63,650 bases of DNA from an uncultured Candidatus Saccharibacteria bacterium (GTDB lineage Bacteria > Patescibacteriota > Minisyncoccia > Phycocordibacterales > CAIZLB01), in the NCBI GenBank assembly GCA_964627085.1, contig CAZVIP010000001.1, positions 104,114 to 167,763 on the forward strand, in the 5' to 3' direction. A model generated the notes under the pieces. The model saw only the letters and a list, made by a program, of their open reading frames with translations. It was not told the origin of the DNA and did not search any database. Below are positions 4,191 through 46,917 of the stretch, piece by piece; within the stretch, counting starts at the first letter, position 1; the number at the start of each line of letters is the position of its first letter. The translations under genes and the position numbers were made by a program.

Positions 4191-4793
4191 CTAAAGACTC
4201 ACTCCAAAAATCTCTTCTTTGAGCTCTTTGCCGAGCTCTTTTTCAACTTCATGTTTTCTTGTTGATACTAGGTGCATAATAGTGTCTTTGACTTCTTGTG
4301 GTCTAGGAATTTGCTGGAAGGTGAAGTGTTTTTCTGATCCAGCTGATTGTACTTTGATATTTCCGAAATTGACCATAGTGGCAAGTGCGCCATCAACATC
4401 GAGGGATACGTCTTGGATTTTATCAATAGCAAGCTCAGAGACACTTCTGTTAAAGAAGCCATGTTGAATACTGTTAATAATTCGCATATTTGTCACAATC
4501 CATGAGTCGAGTGTGTACATAGTAAGAGAGTAGAAGAGTGAGTACCAAAGGATGAGATAGTACAAAGCCCAGAGCGCTGCGAAAAAGGGGAGTAGGTGGA
4601 GCGATGAAATCGCTTTACCAAAAATACCTAGCACAATAAAAGGGATGAAAAAACCAACTGTAATAGCGAATATTTTGCTCGCAATTGTAAACCAATGTCT
4701 GTGGAGGAAGATAATTACTTCTTCACCTTCTTTTTTACCCTCAAACCCATAGGATGTTGAATATAGGAATGAAAAAATACCTTTAATACTCAT
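4191..4793 (-). CDS. membrane protein with a bacterial PH (YdbS/YdbT-like) domain
   Basis: Two or three TM helices followed by ...VNFGNIKVQSAGSEKHFTFQQIPRPQEV, which is typical of bPH_2 domains. Confidence 0.45.
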   Translation of the reverse strand: MSIKGIFSFLYSTSYGFEGKKEGEEVIIFLHRHWFTIASKIFAITVGFFIPFIVLGIFGKAISSLHLLPFFAALWALYYLILWYSLFYSLTMYTLDSWIVTNMRIINSIQHGFFNRSVSELAIDKIQDVSLDVDGALATMVNFGNIKVQSAGSEKHFTFQQIPRPQEVKDTIMHLVSTRKHEVEKELGKELKEEIFGVSL

Positions 4794-4794
4794 A

Positions 4795-5043
4795 TTATTG
4801 ATTAAAATTAAATAGACTAATATTGCTTATATTAAGGATTTGACCAAAATCCACTTGAGAAAAGAGGAGTACTGCAACCATGGTGAGAACAAGCGAACCC
4901 GCGAGAAAGATAACCGCGATGCGCTTAGGTTGTCCACTCACACCGAAACGAATAAGGTGATAAAGAATAAAAAAGGAAGCCGTCCAATATACTAAAACCA
5001 CAAAAGCGAAAATTAGCTTGGCGATATCATTAGCTGTAAGCAT
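4795..5043 (-). CDS. small integral membrane protein
   Basis: 82 aa with two hydrophobic helices. The adjacent stop and start leave a 1-nt gap to the downstream gene, suggesting co-transcription. Confidence 0.4.
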   Translation of the reverse strand: MLTANDIAKLIFAFVVLVYWTASFFILYHLIRFGVSGQPKRIAVIFLAGSLVLTMVAVLLFSQVDFGQILNISNISLFNFNQ

Positions 5044-5092
5044 GGATAGATTATATCACCAAAAAACAGCCTGTAGTTGGATAGGCAGGTGT

Positions 5093-5632
5093 TTAACCCC
5101 GAGAAGTGCGTTGGTTGTATCTAAAGCTGAACCAGACTACTTCCATAGCCTTCAATTCTTCAATTGGCTCAAGTTTGTATTTTTGTAGGCCACTTTCATT
5201 TGTTATGCCGTAACTTGTTTTTTTATCTGCAACGAATCGGGCAGATTCTTGGGTGTTATTGGTATCTATGAATGAAAATTTAGTGTTATCAACTAAATTT
5301 TGTAGCACCGGAAGTGTTGCACAGGTATTTTCGTGTAAAACATCTCTTCCTGTTTTTTTCACCAAGAAAAGCCTTGGGTTTGGTATTGAAAAAAGTAAGC
5401 TTTTGTCCCAGTCAAAATGCTTAGCAAAGGTGAGTTCTTTAGCTATGTCATTTAGGTGGGGTACTAGCATGATTGTCTCGCTAGAGTTTGTTTGGATCAA
5501 TAATTCCTTGGCCTCTTGAAATGATTTTACAAACATAATCTCCGGGTTAAGACCGAACGACTCAATCATGTGCAAAACCGCCCTGTGACAACAGGTGTCT
5601 TCTTCTAGTGAAATTATTTTCTCAACTTTCAT
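5093..5632 (-). CDS. hypothetical protein, possibly a prephenate-dehydratase-like (PDT) domain without an ACT domain
   Basis: The C-terminal pattern NTQESARFVADKKTSYGITNESGLQKYKLEPIEE resembles the PDT-domain pattern (S..aa..va.g..d.aI.s..aa..y.L). Confidence 0.3.
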   Translation of the reverse strand: MKVEKIISLEEDTCCHRAVLHMIESFGLNPEIMFVKSFQEAKELLIQTNSSETIMLVPHLNDIAKELTFAKHFDWDKSLLFSIPNPRLFLVKKTGRDVLHENTCATLPVLQNLVDNTKFSFIDTNNTQESARFVADKKTSYGITNESGLQKYKLEPIEELKAMEVVWFSFRYNQRTSRG

Positions 5633-5685
5633 TTTACTTAATTAGCAATACTGTTGCTTTTCGCCTACGTGTTTACTTTAACTAG

Positions 5686-5757
5686 TGGTCCCATTAGGAA
5701 TCGAACCTAAATTTTGAGTTCCGCAAACTCATGTCCTATCCATTGAACGATGGGACC
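5686..5757 (-). tRNA. tRNA-Arg (anticodon GCG)
   Basis: The reverse complement ggtcccatcgttcaatggataggacatgagtttgcggaactcaaaatttaggttcgattcctaatgggacca has acceptor ggtccca/tgggacc and anticodon loop ttGCGga. Confidence 0.85.
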
Positions 5758-5821
5758 ATGGGGCTTTTTATAACATATTATATAGATAAAACAAAGCCCT
5801 ATGAATAGGGTTTTGTTGGGT

Positions 5822-6292
5822 TTAGAACCCTAACCTTTCCATTACTTTCTGCAGGAACGGTTCATAGTGTTCCTCTTCGAGGAGGTGGTGCAGTAGGAAA
5901 TCCCGGATATCCAATGGGCTTACACCTTCGATTGGAATAACGATAAGGGCACCTTTGACACCTCTAGGTTTAAAAAAAAGTTTAGATGGTTCATCAGTGT
6001 GGTCATTATTTTCAACCCAAAAAGAACGAAGTGTTCCAAAAGGTTTCAGTTCTTTGTCTATAAGGACACCAGCTTTGCTGATCTCGAAACGTACAAGTTT
6101 TGGCACTCGCTTGCTTGCAACAATAAGGGCAAAAGTGGACACAACTATTACAATTGCGAACATGATATTTCCAAGAATAACTGAGATAAGGGCGATTGAT
6201 CCTGCAATAATTCCTACTGCCCAATACCAGTCGCTTGTTTTTTCGACGTGATCATATTCAAGTGCTTCCCAAATTAGAGGTCCTTGTATCAT
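5822..6292 (-). CDS. membrane protein, function unknown
   Basis: 156 aa with two central TM helices. No recognised motif. Confidence 0.45.
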   Translation of the reverse strand: MIQGPLIWEALEYDHVEKTSDWYWAVGIIAGSIALISVILGNIMFAIVIVVSTFALIVASKRVPKLVRFEISKAGVLIDKELKPFGTLRSFWVENNDHTDEPSKLFFKPRGVKGALIVIPIEGVSPLDIRDFLLHHLLEEEHYEPFLQKVMERLGF

Positions 6293-6392
6293 GTTTGTAT
6301 TTTATCATAATTTAATGTGCAATATCTATTATTGGGTATATTGAGATATAATATTGAGGTTAGGTTTATATTTATAAGAGCAAAACACATAT

Positions 6393-9300
6393 ATGGAATT
6401 ATTTATACTTATTATAAGCATTGTTTTAATTATTAGACTTTGGATTAAGGTAGGGGACCTAGAGGCTCGAATTGATGGTCTTCAGGCTACTGGTAGTGAA
6501 GTGGCCAGTGCTTCTGTGGCTGATGCAAGTGCTCTTCATTCAGGTGAGCGTGTTGTTTCTGCGAGTACTCTAGACACAGGTGGTCATGACCTGAATCTTC
6601 CAGGTGCAACCGTACTAGATGGCGCAGGGGATTCTCGAACAACTGGACAGGTTACCGCTTTTGATGAAGTGGTAAATGATGCCAGTCACAAGGACAATAC
6701 TGAATTTGTCTGGGCAAAATACCTTGCGCGTGCTGGTGTATTTGCGATTCTCGTTGGTCTTGCGTTCTTGCTCAAGCTCGCAATTGACTATAACTGGATT
6801 GGTGTAATGGGACGAATTGCCATTGGCTTTATTGTTGGTATGACAGGTCTCGTTGTAGGACAATTGCTTAGACATAAATATAAATCATACTCTGATGTAT
6901 TAATTGGTGGTGGTATTGCAGTCTTGTATCTAACTATTTTTGCGGCTCATTATTTCTATGATCTTATTGGTGCGCCAGTTGCGCTTGGGCTCATGGTTGG
7001 TGTGACGGCACTTTCAGTCATGATGAGTGTTATTGATAACTCACCATCGCTTGCACGTATGGGTGTAGTAGGTGGTTTTCTTGCACCTCTTCTTATCTCT
7101 ATTGATAAAGCTGGCCTAGTAGAGTTACTTACATATGCACTTATTCTCGATCTTGGTGTACTTGCTATATCTTTCAAGCAGAGATGGCATGAACTTAACT
7201 TCATTGCATTCGTTGGTACATTTATTCTGTATGTGACCGCTTTGTCACAATCATTCACACAGGATTACAGGATGGTAGTGTTTATGTTTACAACCTGTTA
7301 TTTCTTGGTGTTCTTGGCTGTTTCAGTGATGCATCATATTTTGAGGAAAGAGAAATCTGCAAACCGAGATGTTGTCTTTATTACTCTCAATGCTATTTGG
7401 TATGGTGTTGCAACATATCTACTCCTTGCACCTATTACAGAGAATTTCTTAGGTTTCTATATGCTCGGCATTGCAATTATTTATGCAGTAGTCGCCTTCG
7501 TGTCATTTATTAGAGATAGGGAGGATAGGATATTGAATACATATCTTACTGGTCTTTGTGTGGTGTTCCTCACGGCTGCTGTGCCGATGCAGTTTGATGG
7601 AATGTGGATTACATCAGTTTGGTTCTTGGAGGCGGTGATTCTATTTTTTGTCGACTTTAGTCTAAGGGGCAAAAACCTATACAGCCTCGGAACTGTCGTC
7701 TTTGGTATGGGGCTATTCCGTTTCTTTGTACTCGACAATTTCCCGGTAGTTGAAAAGTTTGTTCCAGTGTTCAACTCACGTTTCGGTATGTTGATATTTA
7801 TTATTGTTGTGGCATCGGTACTTGCGGTTATTGTTCACAAAGCGTCAGTTGTATTTACTGAATACCTCAAGGGAATGGAGGCAGATAGTGCGAGTATGGG
7901 TGGTGCGAAAATCGAGGGCGCCGTTGCTGGTGGAGTAAATGGTACAAATGAAACACAGTCTGCACATTCAACAGAACAAAATACTGAAATACAAAAATCA
8001 AAAGAATCTTGGATAAATCTTGATGATATTAAAAACCTCAAGAATATTTCTGTTGCGCTCTTTATCATCATGAACTTGATTTCAATCTTTGCCATCACAT
8101 CCGAAATCGGAAGACATTACGATGCAAAAATTAATCAGGCATATGTAGAGCAGAGTACAAAGATAAATGCCATGAACGGATATCGAGGTGATATTACAAA
8201 TAATGAACAGGCGAATCTTTGGGAAGGTTACTATGACAAAGCACAATCGCTCCGCAATAGAGAAAATACTGCCGTATCAGTTGCTTGGGCGCTTTATGCG
8301 ACACTTCTTCTTGTTCTTGGATTCACAAAGAAGAGCAAAGCACTCCGGATCGCTGGCCTCATCCTTATGTTCGCAACCATGATTAAGGTTTTCCTTGCAA
8401 TATGGAGTATTGGTGGTGTGTATCGAGTGGTCAGTTCAATTGCAATCGGTGTCATAGCACTTGTAGGTTCATTCCTTTATGCAAAATATGCAGAGAGAAT
8501 CAAAGGGACAATAATCGGTACGCTTATCCTTGTTTTGATGTCGGGTGTATTCGGAGCTATGCCATCTGGGCTCTTTCATCCAAATTATGCAAACGCAGAT
8601 ACTGTGGTCGCAAATGCAAATGATCAAGTTTCAAAATATCAATTCAAATCAACACTCAATACAAATAGCCAGACGGGCTTAATTGAAGCAAATATTCCTG
8701 TTGATGTACTCACACATTCTGATTTGGTTGATATCAAAATTGTCGATCAAAACAGCACGGTTGTGCCATATACTATTATTTCTGGTAATAGTCGAAGCGC
8801 GGCAGGGACACAAGGTCTATCTGGTACAGGTAATGAAGATATTTCAGCGAGTATTTCCGACAGTGTTTCAAATAATGGCCAGTCATCAGCTATTTTGGAT
8901 TTAGGCAAAGACGGAGTCTTGCATGACTCGGTCAATCTTTCTGTCTCTGGCCCAAGTAATTTCTCTCGTAATGTTGAGGTGTATACAGCAGATACTAGAC
9001 TCCCGCTTACATCTTCTGCCTGGAACCTGGTTACAAAAAATGGCTATATTTATTCATATGTTGATGGAAATGCTGGTATTACATTAACAAACACAGCTGT
9101 CACATACCCAAAAAGCTCAGGCCGATACATTAAGATAGTTATTTCTTCAGAAAAGAAATTTTCAGACAAAGGTGACTCACTTAACCAAGACGGGTCTTCT
9201 TACATATCTATAAATGGTGCAATCATCGGACAAGTCTCTGGTGCATATCAAAACAGAAGTAAATCTGTGATGGATATAACTCCAAAGCAGGTAATTGTTT

Positions 9301-31467: not shown

Positions 31468-32019
31468 TTGAGTGAATTCTCCCAGAGTGCATTTAAGTGG
31501 TATGATATGACTTATATGTCTCTGCTTTCATTCTTACGCCGCCAACGCGGTGTCTTCTTGGCTCGGTTGGAATTGATGATAGTTGTTCTTGTCCCAGCTG
31601 CTACGCTCTTCCTTCTTGTGGGTTGGTTTATTGATGCTAATCCGAAATATTCCAGCATTGGTGTATATATTATTGCGTTCGGTCCACTTGTAATTGCATT
31701 GGTATATTACATCTTTAAATACATAGCTTCGCGGCGTGATGGAGACAAAATAAATTTGCAGAGTGAGGTAAGGGAACCGACAGTAAACGGAAACGCTGTT
31801 GTGAGCAATGTTGGGGCAAGAAAAAATATTATACTTGGAATCGTTGTATTGTTTAGTGTGAGCGTGTTTGTATTCATCACTCTAAATATCATTGGATTCA
31901 ATGATTTGAATTTAGCTCAGACAAGTGACAAAGAAAAACTTATTTCGAGTTTTGTCTTAGGTCTTATTGCGGCTTCTGTGTTTTTTGAGAAAGCGTGGAA
32001 GTCGAGGTGGGGGAGGTGA
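31468..32019 (+). CDS. membrane protein, function unknown
   Basis: Four hydrophobic helices. TTG start in the ORF track, with ATG alternatives downstream. The last roughly 8 nt overlap a copy of the tRNA-Ser 3' end. Confidence 0.45.
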   Translation: MSEFSQSAFKWYDMTYMSLLSFLRRQRGVFLARLELMIVVLVPAATLFLLVGWFIDANPKYSSIGVYIIAFGPLVIALVYYIFKYIASRRDGDKINLQSEVREPTVNGNAVVSNVGARKNIILGIVVLFSVSVFVFITLNIIGFNDLNLAQTSDKEKLISSFVLGLIAASVFFEKAWKSRWGR

Positions 32020-32215
32020 GATTCCTCTTCAGTCGTGTTTTCTGCTTCGCTTTGCTCAGATCGAAAACACTCATTCAGAGTCGGGTCATAAAATGTGAGA
32101 TTCGGTCACAAATAATTTCTTCGCCGTCGCTCAGAAATTTTTGCGACCCCGACTCGCGACCTCGCCTGCTGGCTCGGTATACGCTCCGTCTTTCTCATCA
32201 GCACAACCTCTCGAC
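32012..32215 (-). repeat. tRNA-Ser-linked structured repeat region, a rearranged relative of the tRNA-Arg/His-flank elements
   Basis: Read on the minus strand downstream of tRNA-Ser, it contains gtcgagagg (compare gctcgagagg at 36584). It shares the motif gagcgacggcgaagaaattatttgtgacc (24/29 identical to 36707-36735). It has a hairpin gtgttttc...aagcgaagca gaaaacac. It carries two direct copies of the tRNA-Ser T-arm 3' half (gaatctcac; plus-strand 32095-32105 and 32012-32024). Confidence 0.5.
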
Positions 32216-32220
32216 AAAAT

Positions 32221-32255
32221 AAAAACACATTGCAGCAGTGCAATGTGTTTTTATT
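32221..32255. terminator. hairpin terminator downstream of tRNA-Ser
   Basis: aaaaacacattgc-agca-gtgcaatgtgttttt, flanked by A/T runs on both sides. Confidence 0.6.
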
Positions 32256-32261
32256 TTGATG

Positions 32262-32348
32262 CGGAGGAGGTGAGATTCGAACTCACGGGCCCCGTAAAGA
32301 GCCTCCTGTTTTCAAGACAGGTGCAATCGACCTCTCTGCCACTCCTCC
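32262..32348 (-). tRNA. tRNA-Ser (anticodon UGA), class II with a long variable arm
   Basis: The reverse complement ggaggagtggcagagaggtcgattgcacctgtcttgaaaacaggaggctctttacggggcccgtgagttcgaatctcacctcctccg has anticodon loop ctTGAaa and an extra arm ggctctttacggggcc. Confidence 0.9.
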
Positions 32349-36469: not shown

Positions 36470-36541
36470 GCTCTCGTAGTTCAATGGATAGAACTGCGGA
36501 CTTCTAAGCCGTTAATGTTGGTTCGATTCCAACCGAGAGCA
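36470..36541 (+). tRNA. tRNA-Arg (anticodon UCU)
   Basis: gctctcgtagttcaatggatagaactgcggacttctaagccgttaatgttggttcgattccaaccgagagca has acceptor gctctcg/cgagagc, anticodon loop ctTCTaa (one A-G mismatch at the base of the stem) and T-arm gttgg-ttcgatt-ccaac. Confidence 0.85.
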
Positions 36542-36581
36542 CACTATAAAAAAACACCCACCCGGGTGTTTTTTTATAGTG
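36542..36581 (+). terminator. long hairpin terminator directly after tRNA-Arg
   Basis: cactataaaaaaacaccc-accc-gggtgtttttttatagtg. Confidence 0.65.
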
Positions 36582-36736
36582 TGCTCGAGAGGAAGCACGG
36601 GGTGCTTCCGTGTTGGAATCGAAGCCTGATTGAGCGCAGTTTGCGAGTGAAGCGAAGCAAAATGCCCAATCAGGGTACTGGCCCCTGTAAGGGGCGATTC
36701 CAACCGAGCGACGGCGAGGGGATTATCTGTGGCCAC
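36582..36736 (+). ncRNA. candidate structured element (tRNA-flank element, Arg copy, 'filled'), five helices plus a conserved tail motif
   Basis: tgctcg(P1)-agag-gaagca/cgggg/tgcttc(P2)-cgt-gttggaatc(P3)-gaag-cctgattg(P4)-agc-gcagtttgc/gagtgaagcgaa/gcaaaatgc-c-caatcagg(P4')-gtact-g-gcccc/tgtaa/ggggc(P5)-gattccaac(P3')-cgagcg(P1'). The tail is acggcgaggggattatctgtggccac. The helices covary with the His copy at 44343-44476. Confidence 0.5.
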
Positions 36737-36808
36737 AAAACTGAGACAGACCGAGAGGTTTGAAATATAAGAAAAGACCCCACGATTTTACTCGTAGGGT
36801 CCTGAGGA

Positions 36809-37681
36809 CTATCTGGACAGAACTTCAAAAGGACCGAAGCATAGGTAGGAATCAACAAACGCTTTGAATCCCACCATTGCTCGATTCAGAGATTCCAGTT
36901 CGTTTTCTTTTATCTCAATCTCGATAGCGAAATTGTAGGTATGGTTTCCAGCGTGGACGGAGTGGATTTGAATCAGATTCAATCCTTCCTGCTCAAACGG
37001 CAACAACGATCTGACCAATGCTCCTGGACTATGGGGTACCTTGAAAACTATCAGGACACGATTTTCTTTCCCGACCGATACATGGTGTGAAGCAGGTGCG
37101 ATGAGGAAGAATGTAGTGACGGCCTCTCCGTCCTCGAACGCTTCATCAAGAACCTTCAATCCGTATTTTCCCGATGCGGATTTTGGTCCAAGTGCCGCGG
37201 CGCTCAGGTATTCGTCGCTTTCAGCCACGAGTCTTGCGGCTTCACCATTACTCGAAGCATCGGTTGTCTGAAGAGCTTTGTTTGCGATTCGTCCTTTACA
37301 TGCCCCTAAAGCCTTAGGGTGCGCGACAATTCTGGAAATTTCAGATTCAGAAATACCGGGTTGCACCATCAAGCAGAAGTGGAGCTTCAGTCGAATTGCT
37401 CCGACTACACGGAAGTTACATTCACTCATACTTGAGTAAGTTTTCAGAAGCTCGATGAATGATTCTAGTGGTTCAGCTACCCTGCCTTCTGCTAGAGTTT
37501 CTATGGCGATGGCGCCATAGCCATCATGCTGCTGAATGAGCCTAAGGATTTCTCCGTTTGAGACTGCTGGTTGGCAGTTTACAGCATTTACTTTTGGAGC
37601 ATCGTATATTTCCGCAAGAATATCATAGGCATCGTGCGAGAATGTTGCCCCTATAGGACCAAGAAACGTTATGTTTTTCAT
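36809..37681 (-). CDS. pheA: prephenate dehydratase (PDT domain + ACT domain)
   Basis: ITFLGPIGATFSHDAY N-terminus. The ACT domain reads RVLIVFKVPHSPGALVRSLLPFEQEGLNLIQIHS...YNFAIEIE. The start is the internal ATG (MKNITF). GC is visibly higher than the backbone (30/60 in the line starting at 37141). Confidence 0.75.
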   Translation of the reverse strand: MKNITFLGPIGATFSHDAYDILAEIYDAPKVNAVNCQPAVSNGEILRLIQQHDGYGAIAIETLAEGRVAEPLESFIELLKTYSSMSECNFRVVGAIRLKLHFCLMVQPGISESEISRIVAHPKALGACKGRIANKALQTTDASSNGEAARLVAESDEYLSAAALGPKSASGKYGLKVLDEAFEDGEAVTTFFLIAPASHHVSVGKENRVLIVFKVPHSPGALVRSLLPFEQEGLNLIQIHSVHAGNHTYNFAIEIEIKENELESLNRAMVGFKAFVDSYLCFGPFEVLSR

Positions 37682-37975
37682 ATGCTTTATCTTTTTGTAT
37701 GTTGTTGTCAATATACTATTTCCACAAACAAAAACCGCCATCCGAGGGGATAGCGGTTTGTTTGTGGAGTTTCTACAACGCTAATTCACCCTTCGGATTT
37801 CCGAGTTCTTAAAAAAGAAACCAAAGAATGAATTTGTGTGTATCACATCCCCATAGTACCGAAGCTTATTTGTTTTCGCAAGTCGACCCCGACCGAGGTG
37901 TCCCCAAATTAATATTGCAAAATCTTCCAGACAATACCCATGGGGTCTCATTGTGAATTTTCCAAGGCCGAGCTC

Positions 37976-38086
37976 GAGCACACTATAAAAAAACACCCGT
38001 GTGGGTGTTTTTTTATAGTGTGCTCGAGAGGAAGCACGGGGCGATTCCAACCGAGAGACGGCGAGGGGATTATCTGTGGCCACAAA
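37976..38086 (+). repeat. second, 'empty' copy of the tRNA-Arg 3' flank (terminator hairpin + ctcgagaggaagcacgggg + cgattccaaccgag + tail motif)
   Basis: gagcacactataaaaaaacacccgtgtgggtgtttttttatagtgtgctcgagaggaagcacggggcgattccaaccgagagacggcgaggggattatctgtggccacaaa is near-identical to 36536-36740, apart from the hairpin-loop tetranucleotide, one tail substitution and the absence of the 92 nt at 36603-36694. Confidence 0.85.
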
Positions 38087-38796: not shown

Positions 38797-38899
38797 AAAT
38801 AAAAACAGCTACCTCGCAAAGCTCGGCAACTGTTCTTTATTTAATGTGGGCAGCTGGTACAAACATATTTTCTTCGCAAGCTCGAAAATATGAAGTACC
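38797..38899 (-). repeat. two hairpins downstream of tRNA-Val that carry the same GAG..CGA(A) loop and stem as the inner P4 hairpin of the tRNA-flank elements
   Basis: On the minus strand, ggtac-ttc-atattttc-gagcttgcgaa-gaaaatat-gtt-tgtacc (38856-38899) has an inner stem identical to His 44397-44428. The second hairpin is aaataaagaacagttgc-cgagctttgcga-ggtagctgtttttattt (38797-38842). Confidence 0.6.
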
Positions 38900-38949
38900 C
38901 CTGCACCACGATTTTATAGTCGTTCGCTAGACTCTCTCCTTAGAATCTG

Positions 38950-39021
38950 TGGGCCATGAGGGATTCGAACCCCCGACCTTCGCAGTGTAAATGCGCTGCT
39001 CTACCACTGAGCTAATAGCCC
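38950..39021 (-). tRNA. tRNA-Val (anticodon UAC)
   Basis: The reverse complement gggctattagctcagtggtagagcagcgcatttacactgcgaaggtcgggggttcgaatccctcatggccca has anticodon loop ttTACac. Confidence 0.85.
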
Positions 39022-39102: not shown

Positions 39103-39813
39103 ATGTCTGTAATGAGGAAGAGGGAACAAGAAATATCCATACAGCTTAGAAAAAAAGGTTTTTCACTAAATGAAATATCGGAAAGGCTTGGTGTACCAAA
39201 GTCTAGTGTAAGTAATTGGGTAAAAAGAATACCTATTACTGACAAACAAAGAATGGATCTAGATATACGTAGTAGAAGTATTGTCAGTATTGAGAAAAGG
39301 AGGCAAAGCAGGATTAAAAATGAATCTGCAAAAAGACAATCTGTATTCGATCTTGCAAAAAAAGATATTAAGAATTTAAAAAGAGAGGACCTGTTCTTAA
39401 TTGGAACTATGCTCTATTTTGCAGAGGGCGGCAAGAGCCAAAGAGGTCTGGTCAGGTTATCTAACAGCGACCCTAGAATGATTGAAATAATGATGCGTTA
39501 TTTTAGGGAGGTGTGTGAAGTTAAAGAGTCCAAGTTTAAGGGTCAGATTCATACTCATGAGCTAAAACAGGTAAAACCAAGTGAGATATACTGGTCTGAA
39601 ATTACTGGTATCCCTAGAGGTCAATTTTTTAAAACATATTATAAAGAATCAAAGACAGGTCCTATAGATCCAGCCCTAAAAAGTAAAAGATATCTCCAGC
39701 ATGGAACATTTGATATATACGTATGTGACACAAATCTATTTTTGAAAATCCAAGGCTGGATTCAGGGTATATATGAGAAACTTATGATAAGTCACACTGA
39801 TGTGTTAATGTAG
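39103..39813 (+). CDS. HTH-domain protein with a possible LAGLIDADG-like endonuclease core
   Basis: N-terminal resolvase-type HTH (LRKKGFSLNEISERLGVPKSSVSNWVK). The central LIGTMLYFAEGGKSQRG...NSDPRMIEIMMRYF resembles LAGLIDADG-type motif blocks. This is motif-level evidence only. Confidence 0.3.
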   Translation: MSVMRKREQEISIQLRKKGFSLNEISERLGVPKSSVSNWVKRIPITDKQRMDLDIRSRSIVSIEKRRQSRIKNESAKRQSVFDLAKKDIKNLKREDLFLIGTMLYFAEGGKSQRGLVRLSNSDPRMIEIMMRYFREVCEVKESKFKGQIHTHELKQVKPSEIYWSEITGIPRGQFFKTYYKESKTGPIDPALKSKRYLQHGTFDIYVCDTNLFLKIQGWIQGIYEKLMISHTDVLM

Positions 39814-44061: not shown

Positions 44062-44230
44062 CCTGTGTCTTATAAAAAAGGCTGTGCGTACAGTTTACTA
44101 CTTTGTTGTTCGCAAGTGCTTTGATGGCTCCTGGACTTTTTGCCCATTTTTCTGTATAAAGAGTGTGTCAGCCACGTTTTAGATCTGTGGCCATCCAGCC
44201 GCGCACCAAGGACATGCTGACAAACAATAT

Positions 44231-44304
44231 GGTGACTATAGTTTAGTGGTAAAACTCCGGTTTGTGGAACCGGTATCGAGAGTTCGATTCTCTCTAGTCA
44301 CCCA
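44231..44304 (+). tRNA. tRNA-His (anticodon GUG) with an encoded G-1 opposite C73
   Basis: ggtgactatagtttagtggtaaaactccggtttgtggaaccggtatcgagagttcgattctctctagtcaccca has anticodon loop ttGTGga and T-arm gagag-ttcgatt-ctctc. Confidence 0.9.
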
Positions 44305-44308
44305 CGAG

Positions 44309-44334
44309 AAAAAATCCCCGTCAGGGGATTTTTT
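44309..44334 (+). terminator. hairpin + T-run directly after tRNA-His
   Basis: aaaaa-atcccc-gtca-ggggat-ttttt. Confidence 0.65.
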
Positions 44335-44342
44335 CGTAGTGA

Positions 44343-44476
44343 GGTGACTAAGCAAGCGCGGGGCGCTTGCGGGAGAGAATCGAAGACCTTTTGAGCATAT
44401 TTTCGAGTGCATCGCACGAAGAAAATATCCAAAAGGTGTACTGGTCCTGTAAGGACCGATTCTCTCTAGTCACCCA
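44343..44476 (+). ncRNA. candidate structured element (tRNA-flank element, His copy)
   Basis: ggtgacta(P1)-ag-caagcg/cgggg/cgcttg(P2)-cgg-gagagaatc(P3)-gaag-accttttg(P4)-agc-atattttc/gagtgcatcgcacgaa/gaaaatat-cc-caaaaggt(P4')-gtact-ggtcc/tgtaa/ggacc(P5)-gattctctc(P3')-tagtcacc(P1')-ca. The 3' 19 nt are a verbatim copy of the tRNA-His 3' end. Confidence 0.5.
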
Positions 44477-44490
44477 CGCAAAAAGAAAAC

Positions 44491-44527
44491 ACGCCATCCA
44501 GCTTCTGCTGGATGGCGTGACGTTTTT
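44491..44527. terminator. strong bidirectional terminator
   Basis: acgccatccagc-ttct-gctggatggcgt (12-bp stem), with T-runs on both strands. Confidence 0.7.
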
Positions 44528-44565
44528 CATTTGTAACCTACCGCCGGAGCGGTGGGTGTTATGCC

Positions 44566-45729
44566 TCAATCTTCGTTAAGGGTCTGGAGTGTGAATCGGT
44601 GTTCAGACACGCTTGACTCATTGGTCAGCCTTGACCAATGGATGGGTTTGAAGGAATCACCAAAAGCTCCGTCTTCACGATAGTCGTCTTCCAGGAACAA
44701 TACAGCGCCATGATTTTGCGAGAGGTTATTGCTTGCAAAACTCGGCCATCGTCTATACCAGGTCGCCTGCTCAGATTTCGGGTAGAATCCAATGTGCGTG
44801 TTGCAGTATGAGTGTAGTTTGGGTAGCGCAATGGTTGGAACATCAAACTTCCAGACACCCATTTTGTCTTGGTTTGCACGATTGAATTTCCGACGAACTT
44901 CTTCGACATCAAATCCGATCATCATAAAGCCAATACTGAATCCTCCATACCACAAAGTAGCTGTGTCGCTTCTGGGGATTGTGAGGAACTTGTAGCTCAT
45001 TAGGTTGTTTGAGCCCACCGTTCTCTGGATCTCATCAAGGATATTACGCATTTTACATGCGCTCTCTTCAAAGATAGTGGTTGGGGAGAACGGATGCAAT
45101 AGTATGCTTTGGTCAAGAATGTGCTCTCTCATTTCTGGGAAAGTCTCCAAGACACTGTTTGTGAGTTCACGCACTGGCACAACCAACTCATTTTCAAGGC
45201 CGCTGATGTCTTTTGCTGCCTCGCTCAATCTGGTCACAAATAACCACCTTGCGAGAAGGAATACACGATCTGCATCAGGGATGAGGATTGTGACCTGAGT
45301 TGTTTGTTCAAGGGGGGTGACTTCACCTTCGAGGATATTTCCTTTGATGGTGAGAGCCCGGAGTAGCTTCTCGTATGCGTGAGAGTGCCCGTCGCGCAGA
45401 AGCGTCGAGAGCAAAGTCAGCATAACTTTCCGCGGTGCAGACCATTTCGTGAAGTGTCGAAGTGCTTCTGTGGGTGAGAACCCAGACTTCGTCCTGTATT
45501 CAAAGCCAAGAATTACCTCGGGATTGAAACTGTTGAAGTTACCTCGGCATTTACCGAAGGCCTTGTTTCCTCCAAGTTTTTGGAAAAGCATTTCCATTTG
45601 CTCGGCAGGTGTTAGTGTTTGCACGCTGGGTGCGGTGGTGACCAGTGCAGTTTTTTGGTCTGTTTGGACTGCTGTGTCTGTCTTAGGCATTTTATGTTCC
45701 TCTAAGTAGCAATCCCTGGGGATCGCCAT
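44566..45729 (-). CDS. hypothetical protein (387 aa), no recognisable family
   Basis: Long ORF with a GC-rich composition relative to the backbone. No catalytic or NTP-binding motif recognised. The start may be the internal MPKTD. Confidence 0.55.
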   Translation of the reverse strand: MAIPRDCYLEEHKMPKTDTAVQTDQKTALVTTAPSVQTLTPAEQMEMLFQKLGGNKAFGKCRGNFNSFNPEVILGFEYRTKSGFSPTEALRHFTKWSAPRKVMLTLLSTLLRDGHSHAYEKLLRALTIKGNILEGEVTPLEQTTQVTILIPDADRVFLLARWLFVTRLSEAAKDISGLENELVVPVRELTNSVLETFPEMREHILDQSILLHPFSPTTIFEESACKMRNILDEIQRTVGSNNLMSYKFLTIPRSDTATLWYGGFSIGFMMIGFDVEEVRRKFNRANQDKMGVWKFDVPTIALPKLHSYCNTHIGFYPKSEQATWYRRWPSFASNNLSQNHGAVLFLEDDYREDGAFGDSFKPIHWSRLTNESSVSEHRFTLQTLNED

Positions 45730-45972: not shown

Positions 45973-46917
45973 TTACTGCAAACCAATTGACCGCAGGAAT
46001 GCAATGTCATGTTCGAGGTGGTATATGCCCGGGTGCGTTGAGTCGCAAAGACCCAGCTTGCCATCACCCATACCAAGGCCGAATCCATCAATAACATCAA
46101 GGTTGAACGGCTCTACTCCTTTGGTGAAAGAGCAGCCGCCCTTCTGGAGAAGTGCATTGATCACAGCAACATAACCTTGGAAATCAATCTGGTTTAGAGG
46201 ATTGTTATCCACATGAGACAGCAGTCGCCGTAGGTAGTTGACGAATTCGATGAATCCGAGCTTTTCTGCTTGGATGATACGTTTCAGCAAGTCAACACCA
46301 ACCTTTCTTTGGAGGGCGTGGCCAGTATCGAAATGGAAAAGCAGATTTTCCAGTCTCAAAACCACGCTGATCAAAGCCTCGTAAATTTCGTTGAAGGCAT
46401 TTGGGGTGCCGTCCTCGGTATCATTGAGTGCCTCAAGTGCAATTCTGAAATTGTATTTTCTTGCCAGGGCATTGAGGTGTTGCAGCCAAGTTTGAAACAC
46501 GTTTTTGTTCCAGGCACCGACGCCATTTTTTGGATACTGCTTGCACCATGTGGTGTGGGCAGGCCCAACCACCATTGGTAGGCCGAGACCGGCTTCATGC
46601 AGGGCGATACCGTATTTCAATTGGGGTTTTAACGCCTCGATTATTCTGCTGTGGTCATCAGGGTTTTGGGTGTCACCCATGTCAGGGGTGATGAATAGGC
46701 AGGCTTGCCCGCGCATCCCGGCTGCCAAAAATTGTTCAGTAAGAACAGCTGGGGTCAAGACTTTTTGATCTGCGATTGTTGCAGGGACGAAAGTCATCCC
46801 GGAGTATCCCAGTGTTTTGCTCTCTACGAGCCACCCTGGCAGGTTTTCTGGAGTGATGGATGCCCCGTGCGCGAGGCTGTGACTGAATAGGCTCATGGTT
46901 TGGTCCGCGGCTTTCAT
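45973..46917 (-). CDS. xylose-isomerase-like TIM-barrel protein (sugar phosphate isomerase/epimerase family)
   Basis: The motifs IALEALN, HFDTGHAL and GFIEF are typical of the AP_endonuc_2 TIM-barrel metal-ligand pattern. My hand count is 34/60 GC in the line starting at 46561. Confidence 0.65.
   Translation of the reverse strand: MKAADQTMSLFSHSLAHGASITPENLPGWLVESKTLGYSGMTFVPATIADQKVLTPAVLTEQFLAAGMRGQACLFITPDMGDTQNPDDHSRIIEALKPQLKYGIALHEAGLGLPMVVGPAHTTWCKQYPKNGVGAWNKNVFQTWLQHLNALARKYNFRIALEALNDTEDGTPNAFNEIYEALISVVLRLENLLFHFDTGHALQRKVGVDLLKRIIQAEKLGFIEFVNYLRRLLSHVDNNPLNQIDFQGYVAVINALLQKGGCSFTKGVEPFNLDVIDGFGLGMGDGKLGLCDSTHPGIYHLEHDIAFLRSIGLQ

Follow-up and report, generated by a model that had tools for sequence, protein, structure and literature searches.

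An element repeated downstream of tRNA genes

The DNA stretch analysed here (the window) comprises 63,650 nt of contig CAZVIP010000001.1 from an uncultured Candidatus Saccharibacteria bacterium. It is a segment of bacterial chromosome with a G+C content of ∼40%, carrying 7 dispersed tRNA genes (ARAGORN; Rfam) and cellular genes that include those for prephenate dehydratase, an M16 peptidase, cobalamin adenosyltransferase, PilM and a Na/H exchanger. The nearest relatives of its proteins are found in Patescibacteria (Nomurabacteria, Paceibacterota and Parcubacteria) at identities of 64% or less; given its cellular genes and these relatives, the window was ruled out as a phage. Copies of a structured element lie directly downstream of tRNA-His(GUG) and tRNA-Arg(UCU), and are called the His and Arg copies here (Table 1). 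A prediction made from the sequence alone (the original prediction) had described five helices at 44343-44476 and 36582-36710, built from direct and inverted copies of the tRNA 3′ half. Both sequences are exactly as it transcribed them, and ARAGORN confirmed the two tRNAs upstream, but a third, internally deleted copy at 37976-38086 had been missed.

The usual layout, 5′ to 3′, is tRNA, spacer, an antisense arm (A′), a core and a right copy of the tRNA 3′ part (right A). A′ consists of the 5′ strand of helix P1, hairpin P2, and the 5′ strand of P3 plus GAA, and is complementary to the tRNA from T54 to N73. The direct copy starts at C56/G57 in every case, giving repeats of 8 to 22 nt; the verbatim copy of the tRNA end is present as predicted, but measures 22 nt (His) and 14-16 nt (Arg), not 17-19. 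Units are about 110-350 nt long.

Table 1. Positions of the His and Arg copies, their parts and adjoining features in the window (R1, covariance model built from 33 diverse copies).
Feature	Position	Strand	Basis
tRNA-Arg(UCU), carrier of Arg copy	36470-36542	+	ARAGORN; Rfam
50-nt palindrome with 23-nt perfect arms: last bases of tRNA-Arg, terminator, P1 5′ strand	36537-36586	+	
Arg copy, whole element	36582-36710	+	Fold; R1 82.6 bits
Arg copy, A′ acceptor part	36582-36587	+	
Arg copy, P2	36592-36608	+	
Arg copy, A′ T part	36612-36623	+	
Arg copy, core	36625-36695	+	
Arg copy, right A	36695-36710	+	
Module 2 (ACGGCGAGGGGATTATCTGTGGCC...), 3′ module of a second element family, joined to Arg copy	36711-36739	+	
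Prephenate dehydratase gene, candidate cargo	36809-37741	−	Pfam PDT 7.7e-25; flanking direct repeats
Third copy, internally deleted	37976-38086	+	Repeats D1 (92%) and D2 (98%) identical to Arg copy
tRNA-His(GUG), carrier of His copy	44232-44303	+	ARAGORN; Rfam tRNA 68.1 bits
Left copy A, T-loop C56 to 3 nt beyond discriminator, CGATTCTCTCTAGTCACCCACG	44285-44306	+	Exact direct repeat of 22 nt (44457-44478)
A-run, GC hairpin and T-run; terminator-like palindrome between tRNA-His and antisense arm	44309-44334	+	Sequence
A′ acceptor part (5′ strand of P1), GGTGACTA	44343-44350	+	Reverse complement of tRNA acceptor 3′ strand and discriminator
P2 hairpin, splitting A′ between T-stem and acceptor parts	44353-44369	+	Fold; double changes in relatives
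A′ T part, GAGAGAATCGAA	44373-44384	+	Exact reverse complement of tRNA T-loop and T-stem 3′ strand (T54-C65)
P4/P5 arm of conserved core, with bulged A and tandem G-A motif near tip	44386-44437	+	Covariation; R1 96.8 bits (His copy)
J4/6 (GUACU) and P6 (GGUCCU GUA AGGACC); right end of element, adjoining T-loop copy	44438-44457	+	Fold; covariation
Right copy A	44457-44478	+	22-nt exact repeat of 44285-44306
Second terminator-like hairpin, bidirectional, beyond element	44490-44519	.	Sequence scan

Conserved helices and a preferred strand

Both copies were predicted to fold into one shared multi-helix shape, the His copy at −67 kcal/mol (z −8.25) and the Arg copy at −63.4 kcal/mol (z −6.29), with 0 of 200 dinucleotide shuffles as stable in either case. 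Between the two, 13 of 41 pairs are changed on both sides, confirming that the same helices recur with pairing kept. In an alignment of 33 sequences, double changes were seen in 26 of 32 pairs and 85% of cells were paired; 0 of 500 shuffles matched the observed covariation values, and the signal collapsed when the 3′ partners were slid. Covariation was strong in helices P3 to P6, with P4 the best supported (e.g., CG 25, AU 7, GC 1; GC 14, GU 9, UA 8), and double changes also occur in P2 among relatives. P6 is real and covaries, with compensatory variants such as GGUCUC/GAGACC (locus L020) and GAACUC/GAGUUC (L026), although it proved to be a 6-bp stem with a GUA triloop and not the helix first drawn. 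Across the family, conservation extends to GAA(G/A), the bulge region UUGAGC...CCAA, GUACU, and P6 with the GA after it. Of the unpaired segments first seen to be identical in the two copies, GAA(G/A) and GUACU are thus conserved family-wide; CGGGG, the P2 loop, is not.

When the two strands are compared, 68 of 76 elements fold more stably as the tRNA-sense strand (mean difference −4.4 kcal/mol; 145 versus 66 G-U pairs; p = 2e-12). Strand energies and G-U asymmetry therefore indicate that the folded species is the tRNA-sense strand, as RNA or single-stranded DNA (ssDNA). The pairing of P1 and P3 that was originally described is one of two mutually exclusive predicted folds. When the tRNA 3′ half is included, A′ is predicted to pair with the upstream tRNA sequence across the terminator; the long hairpin that results is capped by the terminator, and P2 branches off its side (z-scores −11.9 and −13.6).

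Two alternative, switch-like pairings of A′, strong covariation, and the G-U bias towards the tRNA-sense strand all favour the main rival to the mobile-element interpretation developed below, namely a host structured non-coding RNA or cis-regulatory RNA of tRNA biogenesis. A read-through transcript would carry A′ and sequester the tRNA 3′ half, downstream A would compete for A′, and the core would bind a host factor, the outcome being a processed tRNA-like RNA or a switch in tRNA 3′ maturation. Evidence given in the following sections leads us to regard such a host RNA as unlikely.

An independent module, a tiny hairpin of the form (U)GAGC-GNA-GCGAA(A) flanked by tandem G-A, turns up repeatedly. 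It makes up the P5 tip (44404-44421 and 36644-36657 in the window), and takes the place of the terminator in the spacers of L008, L014, L025, L034, L076, L124 and L139; it may be a protein-binding motif. Likeness of the GAG...CGAA and GUA/GAA motifs to hammerhead, K-turn or sarcin-ricin motifs was looked at by eye only and is not claimed.

The antisense arm tracks the adjoining tRNA

The T part of A′ matches the T-loop and T-stem 3′ strand of its cognate tRNA at 12 of 12 positions in 54 of 94 elements, and at 10 or more in 85 of 94, compared with a mean match of 8.8 to non-cognate tRNAs. The statement that the P3 5′ strand plus GAA is the exact reverse complement of T-loop and T-stem was correct for the His copy. 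Complementarity has a sharp limit, being present at T54 (72/72) and T55 (71/72) and lacking at G53 (0/72). Only 22 of 94 elements, on the other hand, have a right A that is intact over 17 nt. Right A and the tRNA disagree at 181 sites; A′ sides with the tRNA at 172 of these and with right A at 3. A′ therefore tracks the tRNA's own 3′ half and not the right copy, whose decay is as expected of a displaced gene end that has no function.

No P1 is present at L003. At L006 the tRNA-His T-loop reads TCCGATT (C55), and A′ carries the matching change, AATCGGA. Cores that are 94-97% identical at tRNA-Gly(CCC) and tRNA-Ser(GGA) are joined to A′ arms that each fit their own tRNA. The C at the universally conserved U55 of the L006 tRNA-His (1305-1376, −) also stands at the element's right end (GGAC-C-GATT), suggesting that left and right copies have recombined within the T-loop.

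The spacer between tRNA and A′ holds a hairpin and T-run in 52 of 85 elements, and many of the others have a small GAGCGNAGCGAA hairpin. Promoter scans upstream of the His and Arg copies found no promoter-like site. These observations, together with the 22 of 94 count for the right copy that closes P1 and the 172 of 181 sites at which the 5′ arm follows the tRNA, argue against an RNA that mimics an acceptor/T minihelix, one of the two original proposals. They also count against a host RNA in general: a terminator commonly lies between the tRNA and A′, and most elements have a decayed right copy, on which the closed five-helix fold depends.

A large family in Patescibacteria

Pattern scans recovered more than 150 relatives, almost all in Patescibacteria. 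A scan of species-representative genomes with a pattern built solely from tRNA-independent parts gave 30 loci, of which ∼27 are clear homologues, again nearly all in this group; the lineages represented are Saccharibacteria, Paceibacteria, Parcubacteria, Kaiserbacteria and Taylorbacteria. A 20-nt core pattern had at least 120 matches in metagenome contigs and none in viral contigs, and a core pattern matched twice in the window where 0.00 matches were expected by chance. R1 matched the window only at the His and Arg copies. Over 65 loci it identified 83 copies, including variants missed by patterns, and placed a copy no more than 300 nt downstream of 62 of 121 tRNA or tmRNA genes (3 of 4 tRNAs at L020).

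Among 133 assessable copies, 113 have a same-strand tRNA or tmRNA within 320 nt upstream. The carriers comprise 33 tRNA anticodon types plus three tmRNAs, and element orientation is always that of the tRNA. The expectation that every copy would lie 3′ of a tRNA holds for this majority, but orphan copies with no tRNA also exist. Constant orientation fits a host RNA, as does retention of the core across Saccharibacteria and the Paceibacteria/Parcubacteria group (e.g., Kaiserbacteria and Taylorbacteria).

The original prediction could name no RNA family, and neither could we. At the gathering threshold, Rfam 15 matched only the 7 tRNAs in the whole window; at E≤10 in the region 44200-44560, nothing over the element exceeded 23 bits and no match was credible. 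Rfam searches of 19 further loci returned tRNA and tmRNA only, and neither ARAGORN nor the Rfam tRNA and tmRNA models called the element. Full-text searches of the literature found no description of it, a result that speaks only weakly for novelty, given an incomplete library. The family is large and apparently undescribed; it is absent from Rfam, and the covariance model is now available for annotating copies.

Empty sites, arrays and cargo

Three relatives are syntenic with the window over the genes for an RluA-type pseudouridine synthase, L19, tRNA-Leu, one further gene, CobA and tRNA-His. In these relatives the next gene begins 40-64 nt after tRNA-His, with no terminator hairpin and no R1 match, whereas the gap in the window is 505 nt. 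The terminator-like palindrome of the His copy, absent after tRNA-His in the relatives, was counted as part of the insertion. The presence/absence polymorphism that had been anticipated is thus seen between the window and three relatives, and retention of tRNA-His without the element argues against a host RNA. The gene 3′ of tRNA-His differs in each relative (AAA_33, a 425-aa protein, a 247-aa protein), so the position is variable. In the window, a 387-aa ORF (44566-45729, −), unmatched in Pfam and NCBIfam, runs towards the His element in convergent orientation.

Units also occur in series. At L010 they are arranged head to tail, each A being common to two neighbours, and L026, L108, L129 and others contain tandem or nested units that each end in another T-loop-to-3′-end copy. 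L059 has the order right A, 299-aa ORF, terminator, A′ and degenerate core, with all arms matching an end of the tRNA-Gln type; for the ORF, a marginal match to AbiH (E 0.043) was all that was found. Genes that precede orphan copies encode a DNA methylase at L104, a DUF5677 protein at L030 and, at L007, shikimate dehydrogenase together with a TIM-barrel/oxidoreductase fusion; no left copies of A were found upstream of orphan elements within the loci. At L137, a second core with an exact right A lies 3.7 kb from tRNA-Glu, beyond a 3.4-kb block. Tandem, nested, cargo-bearing and tRNA-less units are a further point against a host RNA. The L137 block (4330-7740), situated between a complete element and the second core, is bounded by inverted repeats of ∼65 nt; its products are an HTH protein of the XRE type, a KilA-N protein and several uncharacterised proteins.

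In the window, the prephenate dehydratase gene lies between the Arg copy and the third copy. The third copy consists of a palindromic terminator, the P1 5′ strand, the P2 5′ strand, CGGGG joined to CGATTCCAACCGAGAG, and module 2; 92 nt have been lost between two GGGG microhomologies. Aromatic-pathway and related genes were observed beside elements at 36809-37741 (−) and 45973-46917 (−) in the window and at 4621-7300 in L007, their products being prephenate dehydratase, shikimate dehydrogenase and xylose-isomerase-like TIM-barrel proteins. Such genes are unexpected in metabolically reduced Patescibacteria, which suggests horizontally acquired cargo.

A direct repeat of the tRNA 3′ part from the T-loop, with variable accessory genes nearby, might also be read as the scar (attL/attR) of conventional integrase islands or prophages inserted at the T-loop, the hairpins being incidental terminators or arm sites. 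A 3′ repeat that starts in the T-loop is reportedly the classical sign of tyrosine integrases that target tRNA genes (sublocation classes). We consider this explanation very unlikely. No integrase was found in the flanks of elements at ∼150 loci, and the units are merely 110-180 nt. Compensation in P3-P6 and strand asymmetry show that selection acts on a single strand in its folded form, as would not be expected of double-stranded arm sites, and the antisense arm is left unexplained; the original argument that simple att duplication accounts for neither the complementary strand nor the covariation is upheld. A phage database search gave no match and, as viral contigs gave none either, the element is not a phage att region.

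Searches for an associated enzyme

When 1822 neighbouring ORFs were clustered all-against-all, no family common to the loci was found. Ten representatives of the largest clusters are mostly housekeeping proteins (IF-2, CCA-adding enzyme, HU, PilM, DivIC and YraN), and the non-housekeeping protein among them is a tRNA-linked HTH protein described below. In ∼1 Mb of loci a single tyrosine recombinase of the Xer type was present; the nearest window ORFs tested carried neither DEDD nor transposase-type Pfam domains.

The combination of one core with different arms at different tRNAs, and of folding that favours the tRNA-sense strand, raises the question of an RNA-guided system. Either the core and 3′ A would act as scaffold and guide, as in TnpB omega-RNA or Cas12, or A′ would guide a trans-acting nuclease or recombinase, as in group II intron EBS or IS110 bridge RNA. 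The order of scaffold followed by flanking sequence would resemble that of IS605 right-end RNAs. However, an occupied site regenerates the full target and would be self-targeting, the 3′ guide is decayed in most copies, and there is an upstream terminator where no promoter was found. TnpB, IscB, Cas12, DEDD and reverse transcriptase proteins were not seen among the 10 cluster representatives and 10 proteins encoded upstream of orphans, although no dedicated search was made. We think an RNA-guided system quite unlikely; its TnpB-type form, scaffold plus guide, was rejected on account of self-targeting of the occupied site and the usually decayed guide.

A model for insertion into the T-loop

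We interpret the element as a non-autonomous, cassette-like mobile element of Patescibacteria that inserts into the T-loop of tRNA and tmRNA genes, a reading to which we assign a probability of about one half. The conserved folded core probably directs insertion. The original suggestion of a small non-autonomous element that reads tRNA 3′ ends gains in part from the empty sites, the arrays and cargo, the 33 anticodon types plus tmRNA, and the near-identical cores whose arms fit different tRNAs, but no enzyme, HUH or other, has been found to accompany it.

Insertion would take place after G53-T54-T55-C56 of the T-loop. A unit would consist of A (C56/G57 to the 3′ end), optional cargo, a terminator-type or GAGCGNAGCGAA hairpin, A′ and the core, the latter made up of GAA(G/A), P4/P5, GUACU and P6, with the displaced tRNA end (right A) after it; the element in the window would be the conserved end module of such a unit. 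A circular unit, A-(cargo)-hairpin-A′-core, would meet a tRNA gene and undergo a single exchange at C56/G57, which would generate exactly the observed order of parts: the tRNA 5′ part to TTC, an element-borne A that restores the gene, the hairpin as a new terminator, A′ and the core. Since the element-borne A would restore the 3′ end, the tRNA would stay intact and gain a new terminator, while the displaced original end would be left 3′ of the core and then decay. At the His locus, we infer that left copy A is element-borne and that right copy A is the displaced original 3′ end.

Because the helices covary and one strand is favoured, we infer an active site made of one folded strand, which would be the tRNA-sense strand as ssDNA or transcript. 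Pairing of A′ with A would recreate the target as a duplex, with P6 supplying the other flank, and A′ could pair with a single-stranded target as well. The core would then be a scaffold for a putative trans-acting recombinase or transposase that exchanges strands in the T-loop. The GAA of A′ would have T54-T55-C56 as its partner, outside the repeat and only when the element is integrated or the target is single-stranded. A more tentative possibility is that insertion is programmable: a 20-nt arm, A′, would pick the target by tRNA positions 54-73, a ∼65-nt scaffold (P4/P5, GUACU and P6) would recruit the trans-acting enzyme, and swapping the arm would retarget the unit. Cassettes, empty or with accessory genes, could in this way enter any tRNA or tmRNA gene whose 3′ part they carry.

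Several observations weigh against mobility. Core conservation across distant Patescibacteria classes could equally mean a host function, and the G-U (or G-T) asymmetry does not distinguish RNA from ssDNA, fitting both alike. Absence of the element in the syntenic relatives could reflect loss and not gain. Contigs of the same species all keep the His copy, with no polymorphism, and no pair of fully identical copies was seen at different sites, so recent movement finds no support here. Segmental duplication could account for the repeats around the dehydratase gene. A regular-expression search for the Y1 HUH motif found none in ∼1 Mb of loci and the window, and no recombinase, transposase or reverse transcriptase for the element was found in the loci.

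If the element is a mobile cassette, Patescibacteria would own a widespread gene-shuffling device despite tiny genomes and few recognised mobile elements, and essential single-copy tRNA and tmRNA genes would be targeted without harm. Target choice would be written in a nucleic-acid arm and not in a protein, adding to the few programmable recombination systems, and would point to an undiscovered enzyme. Accessory genes beside tRNAs (DNA methylase, a possible AbiH-type protein, aromatic-pathway genes) would be explained. Should it be a host RNA instead, it would represent a large new RNA family tied to tRNA biogenesis in a major bacterial radiation.

Comparison with known systems

By analogy, the element would work most like an attC-type folded site combined with a guide-reading miniature element of the IS200/IS605 type, and would share its target logic with tRNA-integrating islands; it is a member of none of the families against which it could be tested. 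As in integron attC sites and the attP(+) site of CTX phage (XerCD), the site appears to be set by the fold of one DNA strand and not by sequence. Covarying helices and a preferred strand, as in attC, are both present, and the folded hairpin of attC rebuilds a duplex recombination site as the arms might do here. Integron cassettes are likewise small units, empty or with one or a few promoterless genes, in tandem at a fixed chromosomal site. Unlike attC, the element lacks R″/R′ (RYYYAAC/GTTRRRY) boxes by inspection, its ends being tRNA acceptor sequences; the T-loop GTTCGAT misfits GTTRRRY and stands at the inner, not the outer, end of the stem. Its target is a tRNA or tmRNA T-loop, its duplex arms are copies of the target and vary by tRNA, and it restores the interrupted gene. 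An IntI gene or attI site was not found at the element loci.

IS200/IS605 elements and their miniatures (PATEs, REP/REPIN-RAYT) may be comparable: they are strand specific, have subterminal hairpins, insert 3′ of a fixed short motif without duplicating the target, and have non-autonomous copies that are mobilised in trans. The element has hairpins and a strand bias, and its insertion point is fixed after the T-loop GTTC, but it also has a direct repeat of 8 to 22 nt, which could be read as a target copy borne by the element. IS608 reads the flanking cleavage site with an internal guide, a role that the GAA of A′ opposite T54-T55-C56 could play. They differ in that the guide of the element would be 20 nt long compared with 4 nt, and in that the element carries a copy of the downstream part of its target. 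The loci yielded no Y1 HUH transposase, and the core bears no likeness to known IS ends or omega-RNAs in Rfam.

With tRNA and tmRNA islands that use tyrosine integrases of the T-loop class, the element would share a T-loop crossover, a newly supplied 3′ end and a displaced 3′ end that stays as a direct repeat; tmRNA is also targeted in both. In contrast, units are 110-180 nt and carry no integrase, there is a covarying single-strand core together with an antisense target copy, and one core type serves dozens of tRNAs. IS110 bridge RNAs and group II introns (EBS-IBS) resemble the proposed arrangement in that a programmable pairing segment beside a conserved scaffold picks the target. IS91 (GTTC/CTTG target) inserts after GTTC, the sequence at G53-C56. 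The DEDD, reverse transcriptase and Y2 enzyme genes of these systems were not seen among the neighbouring genes examined, however, and its fold has neither the separate target- and donor-binding internal loops of a bridge RNA nor the domains of a group II intron (no Rfam match). Unlike tRNA-like and tmRNA-like RNAs, it has no conserved acceptor-type closing helix.

Other tRNA-linked genes and elements

The tRNA-linked HTH protein belongs to a Patescibacteria-specific family of ∼226 aa, encoded at 39103-39813 (+) in the window and at L001 2062-2742, L005 1113-1796, L026 5103-5783 and other loci. It has an N-terminal transposase-type HTH and a C-terminal alpha/beta domain with an invariant LYxAEGGK. 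For 13 of 15 members, the gene lies 5-93 nt from a tRNA gene, mostly just upstream of the tRNA and in the same orientation, and the tRNAs are various. An AlphaFold model (pLDDT 86.9) had no significant fold match in the PDB (best E 0.0095, OmpA-like), and a profile search of the PDB found HTH only; a role as the enzyme of the element, with a guess at LAGLIDADG, was unsupported on these grounds. The family may be another tRNA-linked selfish or accessory gene.

A different element family was observed 3′ of tRNA-Ser(UGA) (32261-32348), at 32000-32260 (−) in the window. It begins with a palindromic terminator, followed by ACCGAGCCAGCAGGCGAGGTCGCGAG, then GAGCGACGGCGAAGAAATTATTTGTGAC joined to CGAATCTCAC (a T-loop copy), and ends with a P5-type hairpin and a second partial 3′-end copy (GAATCTCACCTCC). 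Its module 2 is also found 3′ of the Arg copy and the deleted third copy; it wraps a core of the main family in L067, and lies between core and right A in L108. A reduced element was seen 3′ of tRNA-Val(UAC) (38949-39021), at 38840-38945 (−), with GGTAC..CATATTTTCGAGCTTGCGAAGAAAATATG..GTACC and then AGCTGCCCACA, which resembles the tRNA-Val 3′ end. The tip of its hairpin is a tandem G-A, as in P5 of the main family.

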